This document shows, piece by piece, positions 8,534 through 31,604 of a DNA stretch of 64,000 nucleotides (the stretch's first letter is position 1; every line of letters starts with the position of its first letter). Under the pieces are notes generated by a model. The model made no database searches. It saw only the letters and a list, made by a program, of their open reading frames with translations, and was not told the origin of the DNA. This stretch comes from Escherichia coli O127:H6 str. E2348/69 (lineage in GTDB: Bacteria; Pseudomonadota; Gammaproteobacteria; Enterobacterales; Enterobacteriaceae), in NCBI RefSeq assembly GCF_000026545.1, contig NC_011601.1; one strand, given 5' to 3'. Made by a program: the position numbers and the translations under genes.

Positions 8534-8871
8534 TGGGTTTGAAATGATTACTCCCTTGCCTGCAGGAAATCAATGCCACCAGAAACAGAGTATAAAAAAG
8601 GGTGCAGGAGACCAAACCATCACAATTCAGTACGCGGGGTTTTACCCCGCGTGGTGGCTACTTCTTCGATTCGTAAGCGAGAACTGCCTTAAACTCCATA
8701 CCACGTTCTCTGATACTCAACTCACACAACGAGTCGCCTACCATCAACGTGAATCCCAGTACTGTACAACACAGTACGATGATTGCCACAAGGGCATATT
8801 TTGTCAGCATGTCTGTGTAAGTTCACAGAGATATTGCAATTGCCTCCGGATAAGTAAGGGGAGATTGCACT

Positions 8872-10146
8872 ATGCAAATGCAGCATCTGATGGTTGGCTA
8901 TCCTAAGTACTACCAAACGGCCGATTATGCGTTGAGGCTTTCAGTGATGGCTGATATAGCAACAATGAGAATGAAGGCTCTGCACTTCTGGGATAAACAC
9001 GGTATTTCTGCAGCTTCTGAAGCCTTTGGCGTGTCCTGCCGCACGCTTTACTGGTGGCGTCAGTTACTGAACAAGGAAGGACCTGAGGGGCTAATCCCGC
9101 ACAGTAAGGCACCTCTGGTGCGACGAAAAAAACACTGGCATCCCGATGTGCTGAAAGAGATTCGACGCCTCAGGACAGAGCTGCCGAACCTCGGTAAAGA
9201 GCAGATTTTTGTTCGCCTGAAGCCCTGGTGCGAACAGCGCTATCTGGCCTGTCCGAGTGTTTCCACCATCGGCAGAATGATCGCTGCCGCACATGATAAA
9301 ATGCGGATGATACCTGTGCGTCTGGGATCGCGGGGGAAGGCACTGCTTGTCAAAAAGCGGTCTGCCAAACCCCGCAGGCCAAAGCACTACCGCCCGGTAA
9401 AGACAGGTGAGCTCATTGGGATGGACGCCATTGAGCTCAGAATGGGCGAACTGCGTCGCTATGTCATCACCATGATCGACGAATGCAGCAATTACGCGCT
9501 GGCGCTGGCTGTGCCGTCACTCAACAGTGATATCGTCAATCACTTCTTCAGCCGCGCAGCCCGGTTGTTCCCGGTCGGTATCAGCCAGATAATCACAGAT
9601 AACGGAAAAGAGTTCCTGGGAAACTTCGACAAAACGCTGCAGGAAGCCGCTATCAAACACCTCTGGACCTATCCCTACACGCCAAAAATGAACGCTATCT
9701 GTGAACGTTTTAACCGGACGTTAAGAGAGCAGTTTATTGAATTTAATGAGATTTTACTCTTTGAAGATCTGGCGCTATTTAACCAGAAGCTGGCGGAATA
9801 TCTGGTGCTGTATAACAGCAAAAGACCCCACAAGGCGCTCGCACTAATGACGCCCGTGGAATATATTTTAAAAGAGAATAAAAATTGCAATATGTGGTGG
9901 ACCCATACAATGTCTTGCCTCCTTGCAAAGAAGAGACTAACATCCGAATTGCTTAGGTTCGAACGTAGGCCTCAGGTTGATAGAAATATCGCCTGGGGCT
10001 TTTGTCCATCTGGAACCTCGCGAATGCTTAACGCCAGACAGCCTCAAGCACCCAACGCCATTCTATACCTGTTAATTTTCCCTGCGATGTTCACCTTTAA
10101 ATGCCGGAATGCTGCTCGCAAAATAAAAACGCCCCATCATTTCTGA
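8872..10146 (+). CDS. IS-like DDE transposase (integrase-core/rve fold, IS481-family-like); C-terminal ~80 codons probably read-through into flanking DNA
   Basis: N-terminal HTH-like segment (GVSCRTLYWWRQ), then integrase catalytic hallmarks (D in MDAIELR, ITDNGKEF, ICERFNRTL). ORF extends into the cysH terminator hairpin at ~10127..10157. Family assignment by motif recognition only. Confidence 0.6.
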   Translation: MQMQHLMVGYPKYYQTADYALRLSVMADIATMRMKALHFWDKHGISAASEAFGVSCRTLYWWRQLLNKEGPEGLIPHSKAPLVRRKKHWHPDVLKEIRRLRTELPNLGKEQIFVRLKPWCEQRYLACPSVSTIGRMIAAAHDKMRMIPVRLGSRGKALLVKKRSAKPRRPKHYRPVKTGELIGMDAIELRMGELRRYVITMIDECSNYALALAVPSLNSDIVNHFFSRAARLFPVGISQIITDNGKEFLGNFDKTLQEAAIKHLWTYPYTPKMNAICERFNRTLREQFIEFNEILLFEDLALFNQKLAEYLVLYNSKRPHKALALMTPVEYILKENKNCNMWWTHTMSCLLAKKRLTSELLRFERRPQVDRNIAWGFCPSGTSRMLNARQPQAPNAILYLLIFPAMFTFKCRNAARKIKTPHHF

Positions 10147-12695: not shown

Positions 12696-14494
12696 TAGTA
12701 GACATCTCGCTGATAACGGCGCTCTACGCGCAGCTCACTTAAAAATTCATCCGCCGCTTCGGTGTCCATGCCACCAAATTCGGCAATCACTTCCAGAAGT
12801 GCCTGCTCAACGTCTTTCGCCATGCGATTAGCGTCGCCGCAGACATAAATGTGGGCACCGTCATTGATCCAGCGCCACAGCTCTGCGCCCTGTTCGCGCA
12901 GTTTGTCTTGTACGTAAATTTTTTCTTTTTGATCGCGCGACCAGGCGAGATCGATGCGCGTCAGCACGCCTTCTTTGACGTAACGCTGCCATTCCACCTG
13001 GTAGAGGAAATCTTCCGTAAAGTGTGGGTTGCCAAAGAATAGCCAGTTTTTACCCGGCGCTTCGTCGGCAGCACGCTGCTGCATAAAGGCACGGAACGGC
13101 GCGATGCCGGTGCCAGGGCCAATCATGATCACCGGGGTTTCCGGATTGGTTGGCAGGCGGAAGTTGTCGTTATGTTCGATAAAGACGCGGACTTCACCCT
13201 CTTCTTCCACACGATCCGCGAGGAAGCTGGAGGCACCACCGGCACGGGCGCGGCCTTCCACGTCGCAACGCACCACACCAACGGTAACGTGCACTTCGTT
13301 CTCGACTTCCGCCTGCGAGGAGGCGATGGAATACAGGCGCGGGGTCAGCGGGCGCAGCAGATTAATCAGCGCTTCGGCATCCAGTTGCGCCGGAGAGAAA
13401 CGCACCATGTCGACAATCGGCGTCGTCGCGGCGTAATGCTGTAATTTCGCTTTATCGCCCACCAGCGGCAGCAGCGTTTCGCTGCGGGTAAGCGTGGCAT
13501 AGTTCTCAACAATGTTGGCGGTGTTAACGGTCAGTTCGAAGTGCCACTGTAGCGCTTCGTTCAGAGGCAACGTTTTGCCCTCGACGGTGACAGGTTCATC
13601 GCCTTTCAGCCACAGCAGTTCGACAAGTTCTTTCACCAGTGCCGGATCGTTCTGATACCAGACGCCCAGCGCGTCACCCGGCTGGTAACGCAGGCCAGAG
13701 TCACCTAAGTCAATTTCAATGTGACGAACGTCTTTTTCAGAGTTACGCCCGGTAATTTTCTGGTTAACAGAGAGGCTCGCCACCAGCGGCGCGTCTTTGC
13801 TATACGGGCTGGTGTGGATTTCATTTACCGTGCCAGTAGCGACGGATTGCGAAGGTGCCGCGACAGGCGCACGCGATTTAAGCGCATCAACCACGCGGGC
13901 GCGCCACTCGCTGGCAGCAGCCTGGTATTCAACATCGGCATCGACACGGTCGAGCAGGCGTTCACCGCCCAGTTCCGCCAGCTTACTGTCAAAATCTTTC
14001 CCGGACTGGCAGAAAAATTCATAAGAGCTATCGCCGAGGCTAAACACGGCAAACGCGGTGTTTTCCAGCTTTGACGCTTTTTTGGAGAACAGGAACTTAT
14101 GCAGCGCGACGGCTTCTTCCGGCGGTTCCCCTTCCCCTTGCGTTGACGTCACCACGATAAGCAGTTTTTCGCTGGCGATTTGTTTGAATTTATAGTCACC
14201 CGCGTTCACCAGCTTAACGTTCAGTTTTGCCGCTAATAAATCATCGCGTAATGCTTCAGCAACCCGGCGCGCATTGCCGGTTTGCGAGGCGGAGATAATA
14301 GTTATACCCGGCATTTCTGCGGCGGGCGCTGGCGTCGCTGCAAGCGCAGCAGGCTGCTGGTTGAGCACGCCCCAGAAATAGCCAGAAACCCAGGCAAGCA
14401 GGGTAGGAGTTAAATCGGTCGTGGCCGCCTGAAGGCGTGCCAGTTGCTCCGGGTTCAACGGAAGCAACGCGGAAGGTGGGACCTGTGTCGTCAT
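12695..14494 (-). CDS. cysJ: sulfite reductase flavoprotein alpha subunit
   Basis: 599-aa ORF with flavodoxin-like and FAD/NADPH reductase domains. Confidence 0.93.
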
Positions 14495-14809
14495 GCGTTG
14501 TTATGTTCCAGTAAGCAAAGCTGTTTCTGCGCCCTGTCAGCGCCCATAAAACAGAAGAGAAGGTAAGGTTAACGGGGTGAACGGTGTGGATTAAAGACGG
14601 GATAGCGATAACTAATAACCAAATCGACTAACCTGTTTTAGCAATAGTCTTTAACAACAAAATAGATTAACCAACCCAATGAAAAACAAATGAATATTGC
14701 CCATCAATAAGATAAATCAGCGATTTTGCGCAACAAAGTCGTTTTAGATAATGCGAAAAAACAGCCTTTCCGGTACTCTACGGCGGTTTTATCGTCATGT
14801 AGAGAAATT

Positions 14810-15175
14810 ATGATGTCCACCACGTTATTTAAAGATTTCACCTTCGAAGCCGCTCACCGCTTGCCGCATGTCCCACAAGGGCATAAATGTGGTCGCCTGC
14901 ACGGGCATTCCTTTATGGTGCGACTGGAAATTACCGGGGAAGTCGATCCGCATACGGGCTGGATTATCGATTTCGCTGAACTGAAAGCGGCGTTTAAACC
15001 AACTTATGAGCGCCTCGATCACCATTATCTCAATGATATTCCAGGTCTGGAAAACCCAACCAGCGAAGTTTTAGCAAAATGGATTTGGGATCAGGTTAAA
15101 CCCGTTGTGCCGCTGTTAAGTGCGGTGATGGTAAAAGAAACCTGCACCGCAGGTTGTATCTATCGCGGCGAATGA
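14810..15175 (+). CDS. queD: 6-carboxy-5,6,7,8-tetrahydropterin synthase
   Basis: ORF 14726..15175; conserved start [18 protein letters not shown] gives 121 aa; QueD/PTPS motifs. Confidence 0.88.
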
Positions 15176-15252
15176 TAAGAGTGTGTCGGCGGTCAATTTC
15201 CCTTAAGTAACGCTATGTTAGGGTGTTGTGTTCTGGATATCTGGGGCATGAC

Positions 15253-16524
15253 ATGGAAGACGACTGCGACATTATTATTATCGGTGCCGGAATTGCTGGC
15301 ACCGCTTGCGCGTTACGCTGCGCGCGAGCGGGTTTATCCGTTTTGTTACTGGAACGAGCGGAGATTCCCGGCAGCAAAAATCTTTCCGGCGGGCGGCTAT
15401 ACACTCATGCGCTCGCGGAACTCCTCCCGCAATTTCACCTGACCGCGCCTCTTGAACGACGCATCACTCACGAAAGTCTTTCTCTGTTAACGCAAGATGG
15501 CGCAACGACGTTTTCCAGCTTACAGCCCGGCGGTGAATCCTGGAGTGTATTACGTGCACGATTCGATCCGTGGCTGGTTGCCGAAGCCGAAAAAGAAGGT
15601 GTCGAATGCATCCCCGGTGCGACGGTAGATGCACTGTATGAAGAAAACGGCAGGGTGTGTGGTGTCATTTGTGGTGACGATATTCTTCGCGCCCGTTATG
15701 TGGTGCTGGCAGAAGGTGCCAACAGCGTCCTGGCGGAACGCCACGGGTTAGTGACTCGTCCTGCTGGCGAAGCGATGGCATTGGGGATCAAAGAAGCGCT
15801 GGCGCTGGAACCATCCGCTATTGAAGAACGTTTTCATCTGGAGAATAACGAAGGCGCAGCGTTGCTGTTCAGCGGCGGAATCTGTGATGACTTACCCGGC
15901 GGCGCATTTCTTTATACTAATCAACAAACGCTCTCGTTAGGGATTGTTTGCCCGCTCTCCTCCCTTACGCAAAGTCGTGTTCCGGCAAGCGAGCTGCTGG
16001 CTCGCTTTAAAACGCATCCGGCAGTGCGCCCGCTTATCAAAAACACGGAATCACTGGAGTATGGTGCGCATCTGGTGCCAGAAGGTGGCCTGCGCAGTAT
16101 GCCGGTGCAATACGCCGGTAACGGCTGGCTGCTGGTGGGCGATGCGTTGCGCAGTTGCGTCAATACCGGAATTTCCGTGCGCGGTATGGATATGGCGCTA
16201 ACTGGCGCGCAGGCGGCGGCACAAACGCTGATAAGCGCCTGCCAGCACCGCGAGCCGCAAAATCTGTTTCCGCTTTATCATCACAACGTAGAGCGCAGCC
16301 TGCTGTGGGATGTTCTACAGCGTTATCAGCATGTTCCGGCGCTTTTGCAACGCCCTGGCTGGTATCGGGTGTGGCCTGGGTTAATGCAGGATATTTCCCG
16401 TGATTTATGGGATCAGGGGAATACACCTGTTCCACCGCTGCGCCAGTTGCTCTGGCGTCATTTACGTCGTCACGGCCTGTGGCATCTGACGGGCGATGTT
16501 ATCAGGAGTCTGCGATGTCTGTAG
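15253..16524 (+). CDS. ygcN: FAD-dependent oxidoreductase, FixC/ETF-quinone-oxidoreductase-like
   Basis: ORF 15223..16524; dinucleotide-binding motif DIIIIGAGIAGTACA near N-terminus; start placed at MEDDCD (423 aa). Confidence 0.85.
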   Translation: MEDDCDIIIIGAGIAGTACALRCARAGLSVLLLERAEIPGSKNLSGGRLYTHALAELLPQFHLTAPLERRITHESLSLLTQDGATTFSSLQPGGESWSVLRARFDPWLVAEAEKEGVECIPGATVDALYEENGRVCGVICGDDILRARYVVLAEGANSVLAERHGLVTRPAGEAMALGIKEALALEPSAIEERFHLENNEGAALLFSGGICDDLPGGAFLYTNQQTLSLGIVCPLSSLTQSRVPASELLARFKTHPAVRPLIKNTESLEYGAHLVPEGGLRSMPVQYAGNGWLLVGDALRSCVNTGISVRGMDMALTGAQAAAQTLISACQHREPQNLFPLYHHNVERSLLWDVLQRYQHVPALLQRPGWYRVWPGLMQDISRDLWDQGNTPVPPLRQLLWRHLRRHGLWHLTGDVIRSLRCL

Positions 16525-16775
16525 CCCGTAATCTCTGGCGCGCTGCCGATGCGCCGCACATTGTTCCGGCTGACTCCGTTGAGCGCCAGACGGCACAACG
16601 GTTGATTAACGCCTGTCCAGCAGGTCTTTTTTCGCTCACACCTGAAGGTGGCTTACGTGTTGATTATCACGGCTGCCTGGAGTGTGGCGCCTGCCGTTTG
16701 CTGTGCGACGAATCAACACTACAACAGTGGCGCTATCCGCCTTCCGGATTCGGCATCACCTACCGCTTTGGATAA
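16515..16775 (+). CDS. ygcO: ferredoxin-like protein (FixX-like)
   Basis: 86-aa product from internal Met MSVARN; Cys-rich (CLECGACRLLC); start overlaps ygcN stop. Confidence 0.8.
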   Translation: MSVARNLWRAADAPHIVPADSVERQTAQRLINACPAGLFSLTPEGGLRVDYHGCLECGACRLLCDESTLQQWRYPPSGFGITYRFG

Positions 16776-16791
16776 ATAATAAGGATAATTT

Positions 16792-17367
16792 ATGCCCCTC
16801 TTACACCTGCTCCGCCAGAATCCGGTGATTGCTGCCGTTAAAGATAATGCCAGCCTGCAACTGGCAATCGACTCTGAATGCCAGTTTATTTCCGTGTTGT
16901 ACGGCAATATCTGCACCATTAGTAATATCGTTAAAAAGATTAAGAACGCCGGGAAATATGCTTTTATTCATGTTGATTTGCTGGAAGGCGCGTCAAATAA
17001 AGAAGTGGTGATTCAGTTTTTGAAACTGGTGACCGAGGCGGACGGAATTATCAGTACCAAAGCCTCAATGCTGAAAGCAGCAAGAGCGGAAGGTTTTTTC
17101 TGTATTCATCGACTGTTTATTGTTGATTCGATTTCGTTTCACAACATTGATAAGCAAGTTGCGCAATCGAATCCGGATTGTATTGAGATCCTGCCAGGCT
17201 GCATGCCTAAAGTGCTGGGCTGGGTGACGGACAAAATCCGCCAACCGCTGATTGCTGGCGGGCTGGTGTGCGATGAAGAAGATGCGCGTAATGCGATTAA
17301 CGCGGGTGTTGTGGCGCTTTCCACCACGAATACTGGGGTCTGGACGTTAGCGAAAAAATTGCTTTGA
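16792..17367 (+). CDS. ygcP: GlpP-family glycerol-3-phosphate-responsive antiterminator homolog
   Basis: 191-aa ORF, length and sequence consistent with the GlpP family; last gene of ygcNOP. Confidence 0.75.
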   Translation: MPLLHLLRQNPVIAAVKDNASLQLAIDSECQFISVLYGNICTISNIVKKIKNAGKYAFIHVDLLEGASNKEVVIQFLKLVTEADGIISTKASMLKAARAEGFFCIHRLFIVDSISFHNIDKQVAQSNPDCIEILPGCMPKVLGWVTDKIRQPLIAGGLVCDEEDARNAINAGVVALSTTNTGVWTLAKKLL

Positions 17368-17402
17368 CGGGATAATCGTAACAAGTTGAATTTGGTGTGA
17401 TT

Positions 17403-17473
17403 TGTAGGCTGCACGCCACATCCGACATCCAGCGCCTGATGCGACGCTTGACGCGTCTTATCAGGCCTACAAG
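17403..17473. repeat. REP/BIME element (two palindromic units)
   Basis: TGTAGGCTGCACGCCACATCCGACA ... GCCTGATGCGACGCTTGACGCGTCTTATCAGGCCTACA at the convergent ygcP/ygcQ junction. Confidence 0.7.
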
Positions 17474-17514
17474 TCCCCAGCCCAGAACCATCGGCAGGAT
17501 CATCCGGCAGCACG

Positions 17515-18375
17515 TTATTGGCAATCTGCGTGAATGTTTGTCACCAGTGCCTCCAGCACCACTTTCCAGTCATCAATCACGCCAACATCTGCCTGTGAAA
17601 ATACCGCTGCACTGGCGTCATGATTAATCGCCACCACAAACTTGCTATTGCGTACGCCCGCCATTAACGCTGCTGCGCCGGAAGCGCCAACAACAATACA
17701 CACCTCAGGTGCCAGCAGATGTCCGGAAATACCAATCACTTTTTCGGCATCAACGCCACCGTTCATCACTCGTGCCCGACTGTAGCCCACTTCGGCTCCC
17801 ATCTTTTCTGCCAGCATAGCGATTTCCTGGTTATCTGCCTCTCCGCCCTGCCCCACCACCAGCACCCGTCTGGCCTCAGCTAATGGGTCACGGGTAACAT
17901 TTTTCAGGTTTTCTATGCTGATAAGCCAGTCTGGAAGCGCGCCGGGGACAATGTTCAGTTGCTGCATCCCAGAGGGCAACGTGGCGTTTTTATCTGCTCC
18001 CGCCTGACGTGCCAGCGAAAGGCATAGCGGGCGTTTTTCTGTTTGCAGCGTCGCCGTTAGCGCATTTCCCCAGTGGGATTTGCGCACGCTTACGGTTGGA
18101 ATATCTAACGAAGTCACCTGGCAGATGCTTGCACCATGTAAACGCCAGGCCAGCCGGGTCGACAGTTCATCGCCAAACGTTCCCGGCGGAAAGAGAACAA
18201 CGTCCGCAGGCGTTCGTTGCCACTGTTCCACCAGCACATCCAGCACCTGTTCCGCAACCATCGGCTGTGGTTCTATTTGCCAATGTGCCAGGGTACAACC
18301 GCTGAAATCCTGCGCCGCCAGCCAGCTCGCTATTGCGGCATGTTCCTGATTTATTGTCACAATTGCGATATTCAT
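17515..18375 (-). CDS. ygcQ: electron-transfer flavoprotein alpha-subunit-like protein (FixB-like)
   Basis: ORF 17515..18408; ETF-alpha-like sequence; start placed at MNIAIVTINQ (286 aa). Confidence 0.82.
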   Translation of the reverse strand: MNIAIVTINQEHAAIASWLAAQDFSGCTLAHWQIEPQPMVAEQVLDVLVEQWQRTPADVVLFPPGTFGDELSTRLAWRLHGASICQVTSLDIPTVSVRKSHWGNALTATLQTEKRPLCLSLARQAGADKNATLPSGMQQLNIVPGALPDWLISIENLKNVTRDPLAEARRVLVVGQGGEADNQEIAMLAEKMGAEVGYSRARVMNGGVDAEKVIGISGHLLAPEVCIVVGASGAAALMAGVRNSKFVVAINHDASAAVFSQADVGVIDDWKVVLEALVTNIHADCQ

Positions 18376-19151
18376 GGCTGCATCCTTTGGCGTAAATAGT
18401 CCTGCCATAGCTTTTGCGCTTTTTCTGCTACCGTTTGCCCATCAATCAGCGCCGCTCTGCGTCGTTGCTCTGGCCTTGCCAGTTGCAGGCACTGTATCGC
18501 TGGCGCTTCCGCGGCAACAGTTTCGCGGGTAATCTCCGCTTTCCCCGCCGCCATTCGCTGGCGCATTCCCGGTACTGGCAAGGCCACTTCACCACACTGA
18601 CGCACGGCAATCACCGCAGGCAAGCGAACCCGGCAACAGCGTACCCCATGTTCAGTACGCTGTTCGAGGGTGATAAACGGTGCGTCGAGAGTAAAGCGCT
18701 CCACCTGGGTGAAGCAGGGCCAGACCAGCATTTCCGCCAGCAAAAATGGCGTTTGCCCATTCTGCCCTTCGCTGCTTTGGCAGCCAGTAATTATCAGATC
18801 CAGCGGATTCTGGTACTGCCATTCGGCAATATGGCGAGCGACAAATTCCGGCGCAAAGCACAGATCTGCCGCCGTCTCCAGCAATACAGCGTCCTCAAAC
18901 CCAAGAGCCATGAGATAGCGCAGCCAGTGCAACGCCCGTTCATCCCCCATGCTCAACGCGGTTAAAGACATCGGCGTACCGTTTTTTCTCTGCGCCAACA
19001 GCAGCGCGGCGGCAGCCTGTTCATCGGCACCGAGTAAACTTCGCAGAAGCGAAACATCCGGTCCGATATTACCCTGAGCCGCCGCCTGCCACTCTTTTTC
19101 CGCCAGCATTCCGGCATCCGGTTCGGCTTTAAACGCTAACAGAATGTTCAT
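18372..19151 (-). CDS. ygcR: electron-transfer flavoprotein beta-subunit-like protein (FixA-like)
   Basis: ORF 18372..19157; ETF-beta-like; 4-bp overlap with ygcQ start suggests translational coupling. Confidence 0.82.
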   Translation of the reverse strand: MNILLAFKAEPDAGMLAEKEWQAAAQGNIGPDVSLLRSLLGADEQAAAALLLAQRKNGTPMSLTALSMGDERALHWLRYLMALGFEDAVLLETAADLCFAPEFVARHIAEWQYQNPLDLIITGCQSSEGQNGQTPFLLAEMLVWPCFTQVERFTLDAPFITLEQRTEHGVRCCRVRLPAVIAVRQCGEVALPVPGMRQRMAAGKAEITRETVAAEAPAIQCLQLARPEQRRRAALIDGQTVAEKAQKLWQDYLRQRMQP

Positions 19152-20466
19152 TCGCACCTCCTACATTTCCCGCCGCCACCAGCGGGAGTGCTTTGGTTTC
19201 TGGTGCCCATAGCCAGGTCACAACAAAACCAACCAACAACACTGCCGCCAGGAGCAATAAGGTGACTTGCATTCCCCACTGCGCCAGCACCCACGGCAGC
19301 AGGCCCGTACTTACTGCCGCGCCCAACCGACTCATGGCGGTGGCAAAACCGACGCCCAGCGAGCGAATGTCAGTAGGAAAACTTTCCGCAGGCAAAATGC
19401 CCACCAGATTACTGACTGCCGAAATGGTGGTGCTGAAGAGAACAAAAAGCAGCAGCGTTAATGAACTGCCGGAAGGCAAACAGGCCATCACTACCAGCGT
19501 TGCCGCCAGCAGCAAAAAACTTCCCAGTAAAAATCTGCGATGTGCCAGCAGGTGCGTCAGAACTAATCCCAGCAGCGCGCCCACAATTAACAACGCATTA
19601 AGCATCAGGCTGGCAGTCAGCGCATCTTCCAGACCAATAGTTTGGGCGATGGTCGGCAGCCAGGTATAAATCACAAACCATGGGATTACGAGGCAGACAA
19701 AGAAGACGCTGTTAAACGCCGTGCGCCGCCAGTAGCGCGAAGAGAACAAGGTTTTGATGTGTTTATGGGTCGCCGTTGCCACTTCATCGCCCAGTAAAAC
19801 ATGCGGGCCAAAATAGCGATGAACGATAGCGTGAGCTTCTGCAAAACGCCCCTGGCGCAGTAGCCAGCGTGGCGATTCCGGCGTGCCCCAACGTAGCAGC
19901 GTAATCAGCAAAGCTGGTAACGCCGCTGATGCCAGCAGCCAGCGCCAGGCCTCCGGGCTTTCGGAAATAAAGTGATGTCCGGCAATACTTGCCAGCACAT
20001 AGCCTACGGTCCACACCACACTGAATGCGCCCAGCAAAATACCGCGATGGCGGCGCGGGGAAAATTCAGCCAGCAAGGTGTGACCGACTGAGTAATCGCC
20101 TCCCAGACCAATGCCGATCAAAATGCGCAATCCAATAAGATGCTCTGGCGTGGTGGCAAAAAATTGCAAGAACGAAGCGAGCGTAATCAGCATAAAACTG
20201 AAGGTGAAGATTTTTTGCCGCCCGATATGGTCGGAGATCCACCCCAAAACCAGGCTGCCAAGAAACAAACCAAGTAACGCCGAGCCGCCGATCATTCCCG
20301 CCATAAACGGCGTCAGTTGCATGGCGGGCGTAAGCTGAATAATGGCGTAACCAATGACGCCGAGAACATAACCGTCGGTCAGGTGTGCGCCGAAAGTGAG
20401 CGCAGCAATGCGGCAGTGAAAACGGTTAAGTGGTAAATCATCCATTCGCACCGGTGAAGTGTTCAT
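19129..20466 (-). CDS. ygcS: MFS transporter
   Basis: ORF 19129..20556; multi-TM hydrophobic sequence; start placed at MNTSPV (445 aa). Confidence 0.8.
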   Translation of the reverse strand: MNTSPVRMDDLPLNRFHCRIAALTFGAHLTDGYVLGVIGYAIIQLTPAMQLTPFMAGMIGGSALLGLFLGSLVLGWISDHIGRQKIFTFSFMLITLASFLQFFATTPEHLIGLRILIGIGLGGDYSVGHTLLAEFSPRRHRGILLGAFSVVWTVGYVLASIAGHHFISESPEAWRWLLASAALPALLITLLRWGTPESPRWLLRQGRFAEAHAIVHRYFGPHVLLGDEVATATHKHIKTLFSSRYWRRTAFNSVFFVCLVIPWFVIYTWLPTIAQTIGLEDALTASLMLNALLIVGALLGLVLTHLLAHRRFLLGSFLLLAATLVVMACLPSGSSLTLLLFVLFSTTISAVSNLVGILPAESFPTDIRSLGVGFATAMSRLGAAVSTGLLPWVLAQWGMQVTLLLLAAVLLVGFVVTWLWAPETKALPLVAAGNVGGANEHSVSV

Positions 20467-20559
20467 CTTTACCCCTTCATTGTCCGGTAATAAGAACGGC
20501 TTCTCGCCTGAGAAGCCGAAAAGGCAACGCCCTGTCATCGAGGAACGCTGCCTCACACA

Positions 20560-22014
20560 TTATTTTTCAATCGGATAGATAGTACCCGTATTCATAATGC
20601 CGTTAGGATCGAACTGTTTTTTCAGACCTTCCAGCAACGTCCACGCGCTGCCGTGTTCCAGTTTGCTCCAGTGAACGCGATGTTTACCGATACCGTGGTG
20701 GTGCACCATCGAACCGCCGAGACGAATGGTTTCTTCGCAGATGATTTTGTTGAGCGGATTGTGGTACTTGTCGATTTCCTCTTCCGGCTTACAGTCAACG
20801 ACGTTGTAGTCGTAGACGAAGTACATGTTGGTGCCGTTCTGATAGCTATGAGAGGAGTGACCGCCCAGCATGGTGATGTCGTCGGCGTGCGGGAACTCGG
20901 TACGAATACGGTTAATAACGCTTTCGTAGATTTCGTGAATGCAGCTCCAGCAGCCGGACACTTCAGTGGTAAAGCCCATGTTGCCGGTTTTGAGGATCTG
21001 CACACGTTCGGCAGCCACTTTATCCGGTCCCCAGTTCAGGTTGTTAAACCAGGTTTCGATCAGCTTGCTGTCCACGCGCTGGCACTGCGGGTAGCACGCC
21101 ACGATTTCAGCAATCCCTTCACCCGTCGCCTTCGCAATGCGAGGGTTACCTTCAGCCATAAAGATCAGCACGCATTTGCCGTCGGCAAAATGGGTGAAGT
21201 GTTGGGTGCCATCTTCAGCATCATACAAACGAGCAATCGACGGACGATACCCTTCCACCATGATTTCACGCAGGATGTTGAAGCCGGTTTTCATGTCTTC
21301 CAGCACATAGCCATAGAAGAGATTGTTTTCCGGCGTAAATTTGAAGATTTTCACTGTGACTTCAGTGATATAGCACAGTGCACCTTCGTTGCCGATGATG
21401 ATATGACGAATGTCCGGGCCAGCCGCGCGACGTGGCACGTTTTTAATGCGTGTGACGGTGCCATCTGCCAGCACCGCTTCCAGACCAACGACCATATCCT
21501 CGATTGCGCCGTAGAGTGTGGAAAACTGCCCGATACTGCGGGTCGCCACCAGGCCGCCCATCTGCGCCAGCGGCTTTGACTGCGGAGAATGCCCCGTGGT
21601 GTAACCTTTTTCACGCAGCGCGTTTTCCAGCACCTCCAGCGGAACGCCACATTGCGCCGTGGCCTGCATATTCTCAATATCAATATTAATGATTTGATTC
21701 ATGGCGGAGCCGTCGAGCACCACCGAGTTTTCCACAACGGTTTCCAGCCCACCTTCGGTGGCGGAAGCACCGGTACGTGGCACACCGTTAATTTTGTGCG
21801 CATTCATAAAATTCAGCACACGGGATACTTGTTCTGTGGAACCGAGTTTTACGACCGCTGCCGGAATTGGCAAAGTATAAATGCCATGAATATCCGGAAA
21901 TTTACGAAAACGGTCAATACTGTTCTTCTTTAATACTGTTTCATCGGTAATTACGCGATCTGCACCAACAATTTCCTTTAGCTGGTCGACAATCGCTACG
22001 CGAGATAAAGACAT
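20560..22014 (-). CDS. ygcU: FAD-linked oxidase (alkyl-DHAP-synthase / GlcD-like)
   Basis: 484-aa ORF with FAD-binding PCMH-type features. Confidence 0.82.
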   Translation of the reverse strand: MSLSRVAIVDQLKEIVGADRVITDETVLKKNSIDRFRKFPDIHGIYTLPIPAAVVKLGSTEQVSRVLNFMNAHKINGVPRTGASATEGGLETVVENSVVLDGSAMNQIINIDIENMQATAQCGVPLEVLENALREKGYTTGHSPQSKPLAQMGGLVATRSIGQFSTLYGAIEDMVVGLEAVLADGTVTRIKNVPRRAAGPDIRHIIIGNEGALCYITEVTVKIFKFTPENNLFYGYVLEDMKTGFNILREIMVEGYRPSIARLYDAEDGTQHFTHFADGKCVLIFMAEGNPRIAKATGEGIAEIVACYPQCQRVDSKLIETWFNNLNWGPDKVAAERVQILKTGNMGFTTEVSGCWSCIHEIYESVINRIRTEFPHADDITMLGGHSSHSYQNGTNMYFVYDYNVVDCKPEEEIDKYHNPLNKIICEETIRLGGSMVHHHGIGKHRVHWSKLEHGSAWTLLEGLKKQFDPNGIMNTGTIYPIEK

Positions 22015-22083
22015 AGTAATTCCTTCCTGATAATAAAAATGGAATAGTTATTAATAAGAGAAAACAGAAACCACCGTTATGAA

Positions 22084-22869
22084 TTAGCGCACTAAATAAC
22101 CGCCATCAACCACTAATAAATGTCCGTTGACATAATTCGATGCCGGACTTGCGAGGAATACGGCTGCACCCATTAAATCCTGAGTATCACCCCAACGGTT
22201 TGCCGGAATATGATCAAGAACACGCTGGTTAGTTTCTGGATTACTACGGGTCGCCAGCGTAATATCGGTTGCATAATAACCAGGAGCAATACCATTCACC
22301 TGAATATTATATTGGCCTAATTCATCGCAATAGGCTTTGGTGAATCCGGCAAGAGCATGTTTAGTGGCAGAATAAGCAGGTGACCATTGACCACCTAAGT
22401 AAGAGAACAATGAACAGATATTAATGATTTTACCGCTTTTCTGCGGGATCATAATTTTTGCCGCTTCGTAGCTTAACTCGAATGCGGCGGTCAGGTTCAC
22501 GTCAATCATCGGGTCCCAGTCGGCACGACCAAAGTCCAGCACCTTATTCAGCTTACAAATACCGGCATTGTTAACCAGAATATCTACGGTACCGAAGCGC
22601 TCACAGCAGGCAGCGATAATCTTCTGCGGCGCGCCTTCTGCGGTGATATCCACCTGCATAAAATCAACTTCGACACCCTGTTTTTCAATCATTTCCTTTG
22701 TTTCGCCGTTATCTTTGACGAAACTAGGAATAAAGACATTTGCGCCAGCTTTGGCCAACGCCATGGCAAATGCCTGGCCTAAACCGCTATTCCCGCCAGT
22801 AACAATTGCTGTTTTACCTTTCAGGGAGAAAAAATCCATTGAGAACGCATTGAGAGATTCGATTGACAT
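22084..22869 (-). CDS. ygcW: short-chain dehydrogenase/reductase (KduD / 2-deoxy-D-gluconate 3-dehydrogenase-like)
   Basis: ORF 22084..22944; Rossmann motif TGGNSGLG and catalytic YSATK; start placed at MSIESL (261 aa) because the upstream in-frame extension overlaps a leader hairpin and A/T run. Confidence 0.82.
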   Translation of the reverse strand: MSIESLNAFSMDFFSLKGKTAIVTGGNSGLGQAFAMALAKAGANVFIPSFVKDNGETKEMIEKQGVEVDFMQVDITAEGAPQKIIAACCERFGTVDILVNNAGICKLNKVLDFGRADWDPMIDVNLTAAFELSYEAAKIMIPQKSGKIINICSLFSYLGGQWSPAYSATKHALAGFTKAYCDELGQYNIQVNGIAPGYYATDITLATRSNPETNQRVLDHIPANRWGDTQDLMGAAVFLASPASNYVNGHLLVVDGGYLVR

Positions 22870-22893
22870 AGTTAGCTCCAATTTCCGTAAGGC

Positions 22894-22940
22894 AAAAAAA
22901 AAGAAAGGTAACTTCCCCCGCGAGAGGGAAGTTACCTTTC
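22894..22940 (-). terminator. intrinsic-terminator-like hairpin + U9 tract in the ygcW leader (candidate antitermination target)
   Basis: Perfect 15-bp stem GAAAGGTAACTTCCC (22903..22917) / GGGAAGTTACCTTTC (22926..22940), 8-nt loop; on the minus-strand transcript it is followed by nine U (A-run 22894..22902), ending 24 nt upstream of the ygcW ATG. Confidence 0.6.
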
Positions 22941-22990
22941 TCATTATCTCTGGTAACTGGAGATAATTTTTAGCATAAGGACATAACTGC

Positions 22991-23012
22991 TAATGTGATC
23001 GTAATCACAGTG
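22991..23012. promoter_or_regulatory. CRP binding site (consensus TGTGA-N6-TCACA) in ygcW/yqcE divergent promoter region
   Basis: TGTGATCGTAATCACA at 22994..23009 matches both CRP half-sites perfectly; a further TGTGA half-site follows immediately. Confidence 0.55.
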
Positions 23013-23115
23013 TGATGTTCGTATTGTCAAATAATTTAAAAAAGCAGAAGCGTGATTACTCTCACACAACACCTCTGCTTTCCATGTTATTTCTTATTGC
23101 AATTACTAGAGACCT

Positions 23116-23162
23116 GAGAAAAGTAATCCACCTGAAAGGGCGGCTTACTTTTCTCTTTTTTT
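23116..23162 (+). terminator. hairpin + U7 tract in the yqcE leader (terminator/attenuator-like)
   Basis: Perfect 11-bp stem GAGAAAAGTAA (23116..23126) / TTACTTTTCTC (23145..23155), 18-nt loop, then TTTTTTT (23156..23162), ending 24 nt upstream of the yqcE ATG. Confidence 0.45.
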
Positions 23163-23186
23163 GTCTATTACAAATGGGAATACGAT

Positions 23187-24464
23187 ATGCAACACAACTC
23201 ATATCGCCGTTGGATAACCCTCGCGATAATTAGTTTTAGCGGCGGCGTTAGTTTCGACCTGGCTTATTTACGTTATATTTATCAAATTCCCATGGCAAAA
23301 TTTATGGGATTCAGCAATACCGAGATAGGTTTAATAATGAGTACCTTTGGTATTGCGGCCATTATTTTCTATGCCCCTAGCGGCGTTATTGCCGATAAAT
23401 TTTCACATCGCAAAATGATTACTTCCGCGATGATCATTACCGGATTACTGGGTCTGTTAATGGCAACATATCCACCGCTGTGGGTAATGCTCTGTATTCA
23501 GGTCGCCTTTGCGATAACGACGATTTTAATGCTGTGGTCGGTGTCGATTAAAGCCGCATCGTTGCTGGGCGATCATAGCGAGCAAGGGAAAATTATGGGC
23601 TGGATGGAAGGGCTGCGCGGCGTCGGTGTAATGTCGCTGGCGGTGTTTACCATGTGGGTCTTTTCTCGCTTTGCACCGGATGACAGCGCCAGCCTGAAAA
23701 CGGTCATTATTATCTATAGTGTGGTTTACATTCTGCTGGGCATTTTGTGTTGGTTTTTTGTTAGCGATAACAACAATCTGCGCAGTGCCAATAACGAAGA
23801 AAAACAGTCATTCCAGCTTAGCGACATCCTGGCCGTTTTGCGCATCAGCACCACCTGGTATTGCAGCATGGTGATTTTTGGTGTCTTCACCATCTACGCC
23901 ATTCTGAGTTACTCCACCAACTATCTGACCGAAATGTACGGCATGTCGTTGGTGGCGGCGAGCTACATGGGGATTGTGATCAACAAAATCTTCCGCGCGC
24001 TGTGCGGCCCACTTGGCGGCATTATCACCACCTACAGTAAAGTGAAATCCCCTACCCGCGTGGTCCAAATCCTTTCCATCATCGGTTTGCTGGCGTTGAC
24101 AGCCCTGCTCGTCACGAACTCTAACCCGCAATCGGTCGCGATGGGGATTGGCCTGATTTTATTACTGGGATTCACCTGTTACGCCTCACGCGGGCTGTAC
24201 TGGGCCTGCCCTGGCGAAGCGAGAACACCGTCTTACATTATGGGCACCACGGTAGGTATTTGTTCGGTGATTGGATTTCTGCCGGATGTCTTCGTTTACC
24301 CGATTATCGGCTACTGGCAAGACACCCTGCCCGCTGCAGAAGCCTACCGCAACATGTGGCTAATGGGCATGGCGGCGCTTGGCATGGTGATCATCTTTAC
24401 CTTTTTGCTGTTCCAAAAAATTCGTACTGCTGATAGCGCCCCCGCAATGGCTAGCAGCAAGTAA
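23187..24464 (+). CDS. yqcE: MFS transporter
   Basis: 425-aa ORF, 12-TM-type hydrophobic profile. Confidence 0.82.
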   Translation: MQHNSYRRWITLAIISFSGGVSFDLAYLRYIYQIPMAKFMGFSNTEIGLIMSTFGIAAIIFYAPSGVIADKFSHRKMITSAMIITGLLGLLMATYPPLWVMLCIQVAFAITTILMLWSVSIKAASLLGDHSEQGKIMGWMEGLRGVGVMSLAVFTMWVFSRFAPDDSASLKTVIIIYSVVYILLGILCWFFVSDNNNLRSANNEEKQSFQLSDILAVLRISTTWYCSMVIFGVFTIYAILSYSTNYLTEMYGMSLVAASYMGIVINKIFRALCGPLGGIITTYSKVKSPTRVVQILSIIGLLALTALLVTNSNPQSVAMGIGLILLLGFTCYASRGLYWACPGEARTPSYIMGTTVGICSVIGFLPDVFVYPIIGYWQDTLPAAEAYRNMWLMGMAALGMVIIFTFLLFQKIRTADSAPAMASSK

Positions 24465-24490
24465 GCCAGGAAAATTACAGGAGAAAAATC

Positions 24491-25969
24491 ATGTCGAAAA
24501 AATACATCATAGGGATTGATGGCGGAAGTCAGAGCACAAAAGTGGTGATGTACGATCTGGAAGGTAATGTGGTTTGCGAAGGCAAAGGCTTATTGCAGCC
24601 GATGCACACGCCAGATGCCGATACCGCAGAACATCCTGACGACGATTTATGGGCATCACTATGTTTTGCCAGTCACGATTTGATGAGCCAGTTTGCCGGA
24701 AATAAAGAAGATATTGTCGGCATTGGCCTGGGCTCAATCCGTTGCTGCCGTGCGTTATTGAAAGCCGATGGTACGCCAGCCGCGCCGTTGATTAGCTGGC
24801 AGGATGCACGCGTTACACGCCCTTACGAACACACTAATCCTGACGTGGCCTATGTCACCTCTTTTTCGGGTTATCTGACACATCGCTTAACCGGCGAGTT
24901 TAAAGACAATATCGCCAACTATTTTGGTCAGTGGCCGGTGGATTATAAGAGCTGGGCATGGAGCGAAAATGCCGCGGTAATGGAAAAGTTTAATATCCCC
25001 CGCCAGATGCTTTTTGACGTGCAAATGCCAGGCACTGTTCTTGGGCATATCACACCACAAGCTGCGCTGGCGACACATTTCCCGGCTGGGCTGCCGGTTG
25101 TTTGTACCACCAGTGATAAACCGGTAGAAGCTCTGGGAGCCGGGTTACTGGATGATGAAACGGCGGTAATTTCTCTTGGCACCTACATCGCGTTGATGAT
25201 GAACGGCAAAGCACTGCCGAAAGATCCGGTCGCGTACTGGCCGATTATGTCTTCTATTCCGCAAACATTGCTGTATGAAGGTTACGGTATTCGCAAAGGC
25301 ATGTGGACGGTGAGCTGGCTGCGCGACATGTTAGGCGAGTCGTTAATTCAGGATGCCAAAGCACAGGATCTTTCACCGGAAGATTTGCTCAACAAAAAAG
25401 CGTCTTGCGTGCCACCTGGTTGTAATGGGCTGATGACGGTGCTGGACTGGCTGACCAATCCGTGGGAACCGTACAAACGCGGAATTATGATCGGCTTTGA
25501 TTCCAGCATGGATTACGCATGGATATATCGTTCGATACTGGAAAGCGTGGCGCTGACGCTGAAGAACAATTACGACAATATGTGTAATGAAATGAATCAC
25601 TTTGCAAAGCATGTGATCATTACTGGCGGCGGTTCGAACAGCGATCTGTTTATGCAGATTTTTGCCGACGTGTTCAACCTTCCGGCACGCCGTAACGCCA
25701 TTAATGGTTGTGCAAGTCTGGGGGCAGCGATCAATACGGCGGTAGGTCTGGGGCTATACCCGGATTACGCAACGGCTGTCGACAAAATGGTTCGCGTGAA
25801 AGATATCTTTATGCCTGTTGAGAGCAACGCCAAACGCTACGACGCGATGAATAAAGGCATTTTCAAAGACCTAACCAAACACACTGATGTGATCCTGAAA
25901 AAATCGTATGAAGTGATGCATGGGGAATTGGGGAATGCGGATTCGATCCAGAGCTGGTCGAATGCGTAA
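24491..25969 (+). CDS. ygcE: FGGY-family carbohydrate kinase
   Basis: 492-aa ORF with N-terminal IGIDGGSQSTK motif typical of FGGY sugar kinases. Confidence 0.85.
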   Translation: MSKKYIIGIDGGSQSTKVVMYDLEGNVVCEGKGLLQPMHTPDADTAEHPDDDLWASLCFASHDLMSQFAGNKEDIVGIGLGSIRCCRALLKADGTPAAPLISWQDARVTRPYEHTNPDVAYVTSFSGYLTHRLTGEFKDNIANYFGQWPVDYKSWAWSENAAVMEKFNIPRQMLFDVQMPGTVLGHITPQAALATHFPAGLPVVCTTSDKPVEALGAGLLDDETAVISLGTYIALMMNGKALPKDPVAYWPIMSSIPQTLLYEGYGIRKGMWTVSWLRDMLGESLIQDAKAQDLSPEDLLNKKASCVPPGCNGLMTVLDWLTNPWEPYKRGIMIGFDSSMDYAWIYRSILESVALTLKNNYDNMCNEMNHFAKHVIITGGGSNSDLFMQIFADVFNLPARRNAINGCASLGAAINTAVGLGLYPDYATAVDKMVRVKDIFMPVESNAKRYDAMNKGIFKDLTKHTDVILKKSYEVMHGELGNADSIQSWSNA

Positions 25970-26086
25970 GTGAGATAAACAGTGCCGGGTAGATGATTAA
26001 TCCCGGCATATTCACGTTTCCACCACAAAATACCGGGTAACCACTGCTGAATATTGTTCTCTCCTGAGTAGCGTTTATGCTTTAAT

Positions 26087-26113
26087 TGCTAAACCGATTT
26101 AATTAGTTTAGCA
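26087..26113. promoter_or_regulatory. putative ScrR operator upstream of scrK
   Basis: GCTAAACCGATTTAATTAGTTTAGC: inverted half-sites GCTAAAC / GTTTAGC ~25 bp upstream of the scrK start; shares the CTAAACC half-site with the palindromes upstream of scrY. Confidence 0.45.
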
Positions 26114-26133
26114 ATTAGTATATTGGAGCCTTT

Positions 26134-27054
26134 ATGAGCGCAAGAGTATGGGTACTCGGTGATGCGGTTGTTGATTTATTACCCGAAAGCCAGGGGAGAC
26201 TACTACAGTGTCCTGGCGGGGCGCCTGCTAATGTTGCAGTCGGTATCGCAAGGCTGGGGGGGAAAAGTGCCTTTATTGGCAAAGTTGGCGATGATCCTTT
26301 CGGTCGCTTTATGTATCAGACACTGAGTACAGAAAATGTTGATACACGTTATATGTCTCTTGATCCTCAACAACGCACCTCAATTGTGGCTGTAGGACTT
26401 GATGAGCAAGGAGAAAGAAACTTTACCTTTATGGTACGCCCAAGTGCCGATCTTTTTTTACAACCTGATGACCTTCCTACATTTGGGCCGGGTGAATGGC
26501 TCCATCTTTGTTCCATTGCGCTCAGTGCAGAACCTTCCCGAAGTACCGCATTTCTGGCTATGGAGAAAATACGTCAGGCTGGCGGAAACATCAGTTTTGA
26601 TCCCAATATCCGCAGCGATCTCTGGCAGAGTGAAGCGCTATTAAGAAAATACCTTGATCGCGCGCTTTCGCTGGCGAATATCGCTAAATTGTCCGAAGAA
26701 GAGTTGCTATTCATCAGTGGCGAAAGCCAGGTTCAGCAAGGCGCATATTCATTAGTACAACGTTATTCGTTGACTTTATTGCTTATCACACAAGGAAAAA
26801 ATGGCGTACTTGTGTATTTTCAGGGGCAGTTTATCCACTATCCCGCCAAACCTGTTTCTGTCGTCGATACGACCGGGGCAGGAGATGCTTTTGTCGCTGG
26901 ATTACTTGCAGGTCTGGCTGATTCTGGAATACCAACAAATACCAGACAGCTTGAACGAATCATTGCACAAGCTCAGATTTGTGGTGCTCTGGCGACCACG
27001 GCTAAAGGCGCGATGACCGCCTTACCCCGACAACACGATCTCCCTTCACAATAG
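26134..27054 (+). CDS. scrK: fructokinase (ROK/PfkB ribokinase-family)
   Basis: 306-aa ORF with GGAPANVA and C-terminal DTTGAGDAF motifs; first gene of a scr-type cluster. Confidence 0.85.
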   Translation: MSARVWVLGDAVVDLLPESQGRLLQCPGGAPANVAVGIARLGGKSAFIGKVGDDPFGRFMYQTLSTENVDTRYMSLDPQQRTSIVAVGLDEQGERNFTFMVRPSADLFLQPDDLPTFGPGEWLHLCSIALSAEPSRSTAFLAMEKIRQAGGNISFDPNIRSDLWQSEALLRKYLDRALSLANIAKLSEEELLFISGESQVQQGAYSLVQRYSLTLLLITQGKNGVLVYFQGQFIHYPAKPVSVVDTTGAGDAFVAGLLAGLADSGIPTNTRQLERIIAQAQICGALATTAKGAMTALPRQHDLPSQ

Positions 27055-27105
27055 TGATCCTGCTGTTGTATCTGTAACCCGATTTGTCGTGCCTGTCACA
27101 TTTAC

Positions 27106-27177
27106 TAAATCGGTTTAGCGAAAATAATTGCTCTGGCTAAAAAGTCAGCTTTATTATCAACACCTAAACCGGTTTAG
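27106..27177. promoter_or_regulatory. two putative ScrR operators in scrY promoter region
   Basis: CTAAATCGGTTTAG (27106..27119, near-palindrome) and CTAAACCGGTTTAG (27164..27177, perfect 14-bp palindrome), 45-115 bp upstream of scrY. Confidence 0.55.
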
Positions 27178-27197
27178 CATTTTAGCAATTTTTATAA

Positions 27198-28739
<1,542 letters not shown>

Positions 28740-28747
28740 TACCAGAC

Positions 28748-28770
28748 AGCCTCACGGATGTGAGGCTTTT
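28748..28770 (+). terminator. weak hairpin/partial terminator between scrY and scrA
   Basis: AGCCTCAC-GGAT-GTGAGGCT followed by only TTT; may attenuate rather than terminate. Confidence 0.3.
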
Positions 28771-28799
28771 ACTGAAATAACAATGAATTAGAGGGTTAT

Positions 28800-31579: not shown

Positions 31580-31604
31580 GGGTTTTGAATTACGGATCCT
31601 CGTC

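Follow-up and report, generated by a model that had tools for sequence, protein, structure and literature searches.

The ygcP gene of Escherichia coli O127:H6 E2348/69 belongs to the ygc/yqc cluster, which is present in 5091 of 5426 complete E. coli genomes (about 94%). It was analyzed here within a 64-kb stretch of DNA, hereafter called the window, that matches this strain at 100% identity. RefSeq labels the open reading frame ygcP, "glycerol-3-phosphate responsive antiterminator", and this homology-based name is already known and present in every annotation. We report that two divergent operons of the cluster, ygcWUSRQ and yqcE-ygcE, are each preceded by a short leader RNA in which an intrinsic terminator is overlapped by a covarying antiterminator helix, and that these leaders accompany ygcP across taxa. 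Judged from comparative sequence data, YgcP is likely to be a GlpP-type, ligand-gated RNA-binding antiterminator acting in trans on the two leaders, and it would very probably turn on a sugar or polyol pathway by blocking premature termination. The features of the locus are collected in Table 1.

Table 1. Features of the ygcP locus and of the candidate target leaders in window coordinates; R1 is a covariance model built from 61 ygc leaders
Feature	Position	Strand	Description
ygcP coding sequence	16792..17367	+	191 amino acids, ATG start; GlpP-family (PF04309) triose-phosphate isomerase (TIM) barrel protein, proposed ligand-gated RNA-binding antiterminator
ygcW leader RNA	22888..22961	-	K-12 ecr2774, 73 nt; R1 72 bits, E 1.6e-11
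ygcW leader, U-arm	22958-22952	-	AGUUACC
ygcW leader, loop	22951-22937	-	AGAGAUAAUGAGAAA
ygcW leader, D-arm	22936-22930	-	GGUAACU
ygcW leader, terminator hairpin	22942-22903	-	
ygcW leader, U-run	22902-22894	-	U9
yqcE leader RNA	23100..23163	+	K-12 ecr2775, 63 nt, northern-validated; R1 80 bits, E 3.8e-13
yqcE leader, U-arm	23101-23107	+	AAUUACU
yqcE leader, loop	23108-23121	+	AGAGACCUGAGAAA
yqcE leader, D-arm	23122-23128	+	AGUAAUC
yqcE leader, terminator hairpin	23116-23155	+	
yqcE leader, U-run	23156-23162	+	U7
CRP site	22994..23009	.	TGTGATCGTAATCACA; near-consensus; centre 41.5 nt from ygcW leader start
Second CRP-like site	23051..23066	.	CGTGATTACTCTCACA; centre 41.5 nt from yqcE leader start
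ygcW-ygcU-ygcS-ygcR-ygcQ	17515..22869	-	Short-chain dehydrogenase/reductase (SDR), FAD-linked oxidase, major facilitator superfamily (MFS) transporter, electron transfer flavoprotein (ETF) beta/alpha; target operon 1
yqcE, ygcE	23187..25969	+	MFS transporter, FGGY-family kinase; target operon 2, kinase product = candidate effector
ygcN, ygcO	15253..16775	+	Upstream genes of the ygcNOP unit
ygcN	15253-16524	+	FixC-like
ygcO	16515-16775	+	FixX-like
REP/BIME-type palindromic elements	17384..17475	.	Repetitive extragenic palindromes (REP)/bacterial interspersed mosaic elements (BIME) between convergent ygcP and ygcQ
ygcQ	17515-18375	-	Convergent with ygcP; spacer 147 nt

The two leaders lie in the ygcW/yqcE intergenic region of 317 nt. 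An initial annotation of this DNA, made from the sequence alone, had placed regulatory leader structures before ygcW and yqcE, and these were indeed found, each with a terminator that is overlapped by an antiterminator helix. The terminator hairpins comprise 19 bp followed by U9 before ygcW and about 16 bp followed by U7 before yqcE, lie ~25 nt ahead of the start codon and have fold z-scores of -6.5 and -3.5. Their stem bases are near-identical (GAGAAA[G/A]GUAA[C/U]), and in both leaders an upstream box, [A/G]UUAC[C/U]AGAGA, copies the terminator 3' arm. This box pairs with the terminator 5' arm to form a 6-7-bp helix closing a 14-15-nt loop with two GAGA repeats (AGAGA-N3-4-GAGAAA). The full leaders fold into the terminator form with free energies of -20.5 and -31.2 kcal/mol, as compared to -6.5 and -15.6 kcal/mol when the antiterminator is enforced. 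Thus, the terminator fold is far more stable, and termination (OFF) is the default state. The shared leader motif has no further occurrence within the window, and a search of the window with R1 returned only the two leaders (E about 1e-11 to 1e-13). When window positions 14000-27000 were searched with the Rfam 15 covariance models, no match at E <= 1 was obtained except the REP-like naRNA4 and a chance small nucleolar RNA.

Both leaders have been observed in E. coli K-12. Two "previously undetected" small RNAs (sRNAs) catalogued by Romero et al. 2014 (PMC4681348) are ecr2775 (2898527-2898590, 63 nt, northern-confirmed), located upstream of yqcE on the same strand, and ecr2774 (2898315-2898388, 73 nt), located upstream of ygcW on the same strand. 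The offset between K-12 and window coordinates was set from the yqcE start codon, with an older array probe end at 2898613 corresponding to window position 23186. With that offset, the two RNAs occupy the leader positions given in Table 1. Their start-to-start distance of 139 nt matches the prediction, each start site is separated by 41.5 nt from the centre of a CRP site, and the 3' ends of the two RNAs fall at the U-runs. Therefore, the leaders are transcribed and prematurely terminated in vivo in lysogeny broth (LB). The original authors did not read ecr2774 and ecr2775 as attenuators (PMC4681348); most simply, they are attenuation products rather than trans-acting sRNAs. The CRP site ahead of ygcW was predicted earlier (PMC1794230) and has been footprinted in K-12 (PMC12871828). 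The yqcE-ygcE unit is on a list of CRP-activated units (PMC8085971), and we would assign this activation to the site at 23051-23066.

Two further candidates were discarded. The upstream hairpin AUUAUCUC/GAGAUAAU, which appears in the full-length ygcW leader fold, was rejected as an element of the switch, since the mapped transcript begins only downstream of its 5' arm. Leader-peptide (ribosome-mediated) attenuation was rejected on inspection, as about 15-20 nt only are available ahead of the hairpin.

Comparative evidence for the switch comes from 64 loci that were retrieved when genomes were scanned with YgcP. Almost all Enterobacterales loci among them contain two divergent copies of the strict motif, Thalassobacillus contains one copy, and R1 detects exactly two leaders per locus in 50 Enterobacterales loci, with no other match in 1.26 Mb. 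The upper stem of the terminator covaries freely. The 5' arm, GAGAAARGUAA, is invariant, whereas the 3' arm varies and contains G-U pairs, and this strand asymmetry argues for a constraint at the level of the RNA and against a DNA operator. Since MAFFT misaligned the leaders that carry a 3-nt insertion after the U-arm, helix pairs were counted by a custom script, and for this test the arms were anchored on sequence motifs, not on complementarity. In 56 unique sequences, 93.4% of the cells of the antiterminator helix pair. Shuffling of columns gave 87.7 +/- 0.6%, with none of 1000 shuffles reaching 93.4%, and slid partners gave 26-55%. Of the seven pairs examined, three show compensatory changes (G-C/A-U 44:11, A-U/G-C 53:3, U-A/C-G 42:10). 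Furthermore, minimum-energy folding of the nascent RNA yields the antiterminator helix for 67/89 leaders, as compared to 14% after shuffling of the upstream part. In more distant relatives, the helix is preserved by other letters, namely AGUUGCU/AGCGACU (Listeria, Bacillus), GUUUC/GAAAC and AAUUACU/AGUAAUU.

The core of the cluster, consisting of ygcU, ygcW and ygcE (with an MFS transporter) together with ygcP, spans taxa from Enterobacterales to Listeria sensu lato, Thalassobacillus and a Bacillus sp. with identities of 48-86%, the ETF and FixCX genes being optional. An R1 match before the ygcU or ygcW operon is strong in Thalassobacillus and weak but position-consistent in Listeria sensu lato and a Bacillus sp.; ygcP is present in all these taxa. 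A pattern scan of metagenomes with 17 specified bases gave mostly chance single matches, as expected, and was usable only after R1 filtering. The filtered matches include a non-enteric contig with the order ygcP-leader-ygcW-ygcE-ygcU-ETF and the arms AAUUACU/AGUAAUU, as well as short contigs with leaders ahead of ygcU and of an MFS gene. Neither an R1 match (E <= 5) nor an upstream GAGA-repeat/T-run element was found in three SDR-YgcU-ETF-FGGY clusters without PF04309 within 10 kb; in one of these three, a GntR regulator holds the leader position. Thus, the leader is absent from clusters without ygcP and tracks the regulator rather than the enzymes, and the occurrence of YgcU-type enzymes without YgcP argues against a catalytic role of the latter. 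In Serratia microhaemolytica (L045, L189), the complete cluster ygcE-yqcE/ygcW-ygcU-ygcS-ETF-fixCX has kept both leaders (80.6 and 71.2 bits) and ygcP is located on a separate contig, the sole unlinked regulator among the cases seen. This arrangement fits an action in trans, and the comparison thereby supports the earlier suggestion that YgcP may act from an operon different from those of its targets.

Two observations on the cluster are added here. In Limnobaculum eriocheiris (L032, 13878-13959), one palindromic hairpin flanked by A9 and T9 replaces the two divergent leaders of a congener (L035), and the inter-leader promoter region is lost, as if by recombination between near-identical hairpins; the ygc cluster of this species may be silenced. 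YgcU (20560-22014), a FAD oxidase resembling GlcD and alkyl-dihydroxyacetone-phosphate synthase for which no NCBIfam model was found at cut-off, has homologues of 71-73% identity in Sporomusa, Desulfobacula, Alkalihalobacillus and Photobacterium. Its neighbours are almost always a SDR and a FGGY kinase and often ETF genes (L190-L192), and the L191 cluster is adjoined by a GlpD-like dehydrogenase as well as an additional kinase and an additional FAD oxidase.

The assignment of YgcP to the GlpP family in the initial annotation holds at the level of both sequence and predicted fold. Residues 12-184 match Pfam PF04309 (G3P_antiterm) over its full length (model 1-173/173, E 2.7e-62). The only solved relatives detected by sequence are Listeria monocytogenes GlpP (3KTS; phmmer E 2e-27) and Thermotoga TM1436 (1VKF). 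The AlphaFold (AF2) model of YgcP has a mean confidence (pLDDT) of 93.9, and this predicted structure superimposes on 3KTS with a template modelling (TM) score of 0.88-0.91 and a root mean square deviation of 1.3 A (Foldseek). After 3KTS and 1VKF, the closest folds are those of the phosphate-binding TIM-barrel enzymes DERA aldolases, GGGPS, NanE and TrpA. Across YgcP-type and canonical GlpP proteins 20 alignment columns are invariant, and the common core comprises K55, D62, R107, D112, E132 and the GG motif 156-157. The two types are 26-30% identical and show systematic differences beside the conserved motifs. PF04309 is the sole Pfam match of YgcP at E <= 0.001, no CAT or PRD domain was detected, and one further Pfam listing is a marginal beta-propeller (E 0.0043). 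NCBIfam contains no model for YgcP, and no protein of the cluster reaches a curated cut-off in it, so that no pathway name was obtainable.

The architecture of the ygc leaders is the same as that of validated GlpP targets. In Bacillus subtilis, these targets are the glpD, glpFK and glpTQ leaders (Holmberg & Rutberg 1992; Glatz et al. 1996, 1998; Darbon et al. 2002; cited after PMC9604022 and PMC10573289). The glpD 5' untranslated region (UTR) gives foreign promoters glycerol- and GlpP-dependent expression and is inactive in a glpP deletion (PMC9604022). It reads ...ACGGUCCUGAGAUGAGGAGAGACCACAGC...GCUGUUGUGGUCUCUUUUU, with an upstream GGUC, a GAGA-repeat loop and a GACC that opens the terminator. 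The glpF/glpD leaders beside canonical glpP in Priestia megaterium and Lysinibacillus follow the same plan, e.g. UGGUU-GGAGAAUCGGAGA-GACCA, with a U-arm, a loop containing two (G)GAGA (GGA in one leader) and a D-arm that starts the terminator. In addition, R1, with only ygc leaders in its training set, scores 38 bits (E 2.6e-5) on a Lachnoclostridium leader that is flanked by a glpP homologue and a gene resembling glycerol-3-phosphate oxidase, and 23 bits at the equivalent site of a Faecalibacterium contig. On the basis of the common architecture and the R1 cross-matches, we thus place the ygc leaders in the GlpP-responsive class, of which they are a variant in sequence.

The Lachnoclostridium and Faecalibacterium leaders (L064 2983-3067 and L065 5453-5530) have the arms UUGC/GCAA and GUUUC/GAAAC. 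Their gene order is GlpP homologue, leader, glycerol-3-phosphate oxidase/GlpA-like gene and pyridine-nucleotide disulfide oxidoreductase, i.e. targets of the canonical type. Among the Bacillales leaders examined (L067 6560-6745 and 9120-9300; L068 4075-4292; B. subtilis glpD 5'UTR), a conserved AAGUUAAUA box is located at the very transcript start, upstream of the U-arm, in 4/5 canonical glp leaders seen, and Lysinibacillus glpF has AAGUUCAUA. Where the Bacillales glp leaders carry AAGUUAAUA, the ygc leaders carry AGUUAC. The box may belong to the GlpP site or be an element close to the promoter.

Based on these results, we propose that CRP-cAMP would drive two class-II-like promoters in the ygcW/yqcE intergenic region and that each transcript would by default end after about 63-73 nt at the strong intrinsic terminator. 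The leader 5' nucleotides (AGUUACY or AAUUACU) would pair with AGUAACU/GGUAACU in the terminator 5' arm, giving a weak 6-7-bp antiterminator helix. Effector-loaded YgcP would bind this element on the nascent RNA and stabilize it, the terminator would be blocked, and read-through into ygcWUSRQ and yqcE-ygcE would follow, the effector probably being a phosphorylated sugar or polyol supplied by the YgcE kinase. We infer the binding of YgcP to the leader element and the GAGA loop as its putative contact site.

The ligand of YgcP is probably the product of YgcE rather than glycerol-3-phosphate. Listeria grandensis and L. booriae (L057, L063; P0129, P0130) have a canonical GlpP (~70% identical to that of L. 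monocytogenes) and in addition a YgcP-type paralogue, which is 55-57% identical to E. coli YgcP and encoded inside a ygcU-ygcP-yqcE-ygcW-ygcE operon. The presence of two GlpP-family paralogues in one species argues that the YgcP ligand differs from glycerol-3-phosphate. A dedicated FGGY kinase, with scores well short of the cut-offs for GlpK and XylB, is always found together with the YgcP-type proteins, and the conserved GlpP core and the phosphate-binding barrels among the fold neighbours fit a phosphorylated ligand. In a more general form of the proposal, the whole GlpP family would recognize a loop with two GAGA repeats on top of a closing helix of 5-7 bp, YgcP would be tuned to the YgcE product, and regulator, switch and pathway (YgcU, YgcW, YgcE) would have moved as one module between Firmicutes and Enterobacterales. 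We regard the arguments for and against this general form as evenly balanced.

Several points weigh against antitermination by YgcP as formulated here. The antiterminator helix is short, with the isolated yqcE helix amounting to only -1.4 kcal/mol. For one leader in four, minimum-energy folding of the nascent RNA does not yield this helix, its outermost pair is frequently mismatched, and the compensatory changes correspond to just a handful of independent events. The contact between YgcP and the GAGA loop is putative, and the closest folds outside the GlpP family are enzymes. A literature search on ygcP returned gene lists only and no functional study. The E. coli search for leaders covered the 64 kb of the window, and the three control clusters without ygcP, viewed over 10 kb per side, may be phylogenetically related.

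The similarity to enzymes could mean that YgcP is itself a pathway enzyme, i.e. a small TIM barrel that binds phosphate and converts the YgcE product, for instance as an aldolase or epimerase, and that it accompanies the cluster for catalysis rather than for regulation. The DERA aldolases, the NanE epimerase, GGGPS and TrpA that follow 3KTS and 1VKF in the fold search would suit this function, as would the invariant Lys, Asp, Arg and Glu residues and the fact that the cluster contains no obvious C-C cleaving enzyme. Such a role is nevertheless very unlikely, because antitermination is the established function of the homologue GlpP, the leader RNA goes with ygcP and not with the enzymes, ygcP can be unlinked from the cluster, and SDR-YgcU-ETF-FGGY clusters without a nearby PF04309 gene show that the chemistry does not depend on YgcP. 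The leaders might also be real attenuators that run without YgcP, by means of a small-metabolite riboswitch or another RNA-binding factor, with YgcP doing something else. The RNA elements and their termination in vivo are established independently of any protein, and the conserved loop and helix could in principle form a ligand pocket. However, the element comprises only about 29 nt with a loop of 14-15 nt and has no Rfam match at E <= 1, the leader is absent where ygcP is absent despite the same enzymes, and the same architecture in B. subtilis glpD requires GlpP, induction being lost in the glpP deletion (PMC9604022). We therefore consider YgcP-independent attenuation improbable.

That the upstream boxes are DNA operators of another transcription factor and the hairpins incidental would agree with their location at the transcription start, where repressors frequently bind. 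This explanation is highly improbable in view of the strand-asymmetric conservation (invariant 5' arm; variable 3' arm with G-U pairs), the covariation of U- and D-arms as RNA pairs and the short terminated RNAs in vivo; moreover, no gene for a DNA-binding regulator is conserved in the cluster. Finally, YgcP could antiterminate the ygc leaders with glycerol-3-phosphate as its effector, making the cluster a second regulon induced by this compound, as the family name, the conserved core residues and the GlpD-like gene beside one related cluster (L191) would suggest. This is unlikely, since GlpP and the YgcP-type paralogue of L. grandensis and L. booriae have distinct leaders, implying separate signals, the two subfamilies share 26-30% identity with differences flanking the conserved motifs, and the YgcP type always comes with its own FGGY kinase, not GlpK. 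Ligand-gated antitermination by YgcP, probably in response to the YgcE product, thus remains the reading we prefer.

With respect to the genomic layout, annotation coordinates and REP repeats verify that ygcP is the distal gene of ygcNOP and faces ygcQ across a REP/BIME element. The genes ygcN, ygcO and ygcP are co-directional, with a gap of 16 nt between ygcO and ygcP, and the R1 search of the window found no leader motif ahead of ygcN or ygcO. The ygcP-ygcQ spacer contains the inverted repeats GCCTGATGCGACGC/GCGTCTTATCAGGC at 17434-17466 and 17399-17409/17465-17475 and a sub-threshold match to the REP-derived naRNA4 of Rfam. The convergent layout emphasized by the initial annotation therefore exists, but a significance of this layout is not evident: ygcP is located inside the regulated operon in Listeria, divergently in Thalassobacillus and in a separate convergent unit in E. 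coli, and elsewhere it can be unlinked. Because of this variable placement, we regard the convergent layout as incidental. Between ygcE and queE (~26134-32612), a sucrose block encodes a kinase, a carbohydrate porin, a sucrose phosphotransferase system (PTS) IIBC component, a sucrose-6-phosphate hydrolase and a LacI-family regulator, and looks like a strain-specific insertion beside the ygc cluster. Farther away, between iap and cysH (~8658-9906), a Hok/Gef family toxin gene adjoins a truncated integrase-core (insertion sequence) pseudogene.

A search of the literature and of Rfam found no description of the target leaders, the switch structure, the cross-phylum ygcP link or ecr2774/ecr2775 as attenuated leaders, with automated attenuator databases as a possible exception. 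The E. coli "y-ome" includes the ygc/yqc cluster, and the YgcU of this cluster is 71-73% identical across phyla. Comprising two leaders of 63-73 nt with a defined helix and loop as well as a single candidate protein, the switch gives a reporter-based route to the inducer and hence to the pathway substrate, and it explains two "novel sRNAs" as attenuated leaders. It also provides a first comparative definition of the RNA recognized by GlpP-family proteins, which should be useful for GlpP/terminator pairs in synthetic biology. If our proposal is true, this would be the first GlpP-type antitermination system in E. coli, the second protein-dependent catabolic antitermination system in this organism after Bgl and a direct handle on the substrate of a widely conserved orphan pathway.

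Compared to GlpP of B. subtilis, YgcP has the same family and fold, and its candidate leaders likewise have a terminator 5' arm that is overlapped by a short upstream pairing closing a GAGA-type loop. Both systems also share catabolite control at the promoter (CcpA in Bacillus, CRP in E. coli) and a genomic tie to a FGGY kinase and a flavin dehydrogenase. They differ in protein sequence (26-30% identity), in the arms (GUUAC/GUAAC in ygc as opposed to GGUY/GACC in glp leaders) and probably in the effector. The ygc targets are the SDR YgcW, the FAD oxidase YgcU, the kinase YgcE, MFS transporters and optionally ETF, the hosts include Gram-negative Enterobacterales, and there are two divergent leaders with the regulator encoded in a third, unregulated unit.

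BglG, SacY and LicT are PRD-containing antiterminators that act on ribonucleic antiterminator (RAT) elements and are controlled by PTS phosphorylation. They provide a precedent, also in E. coli, for a protein-stabilized antiterminator hairpin over the leader terminator of a catabolic operon. YgcP is devoid of the CAT and PRD domains, the RNA motif is unrelated, and control would be exerted by binding of a small molecule to the TIM barrel instead of by phosphorylation. HutP of the B. subtilis hut operon, which recognizes XAG repeats (PMC2425495), is likewise a ligand-activated RNA-binding antiterminator, and its purine-rich triplet repeats are reminiscent of the GAGA repeats in the ygc leaders. 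Its fold and oligomer are unrelated, however, and HutP binds within and beside the terminator, whereas YgcP would act by stabilizing an upstream helix.

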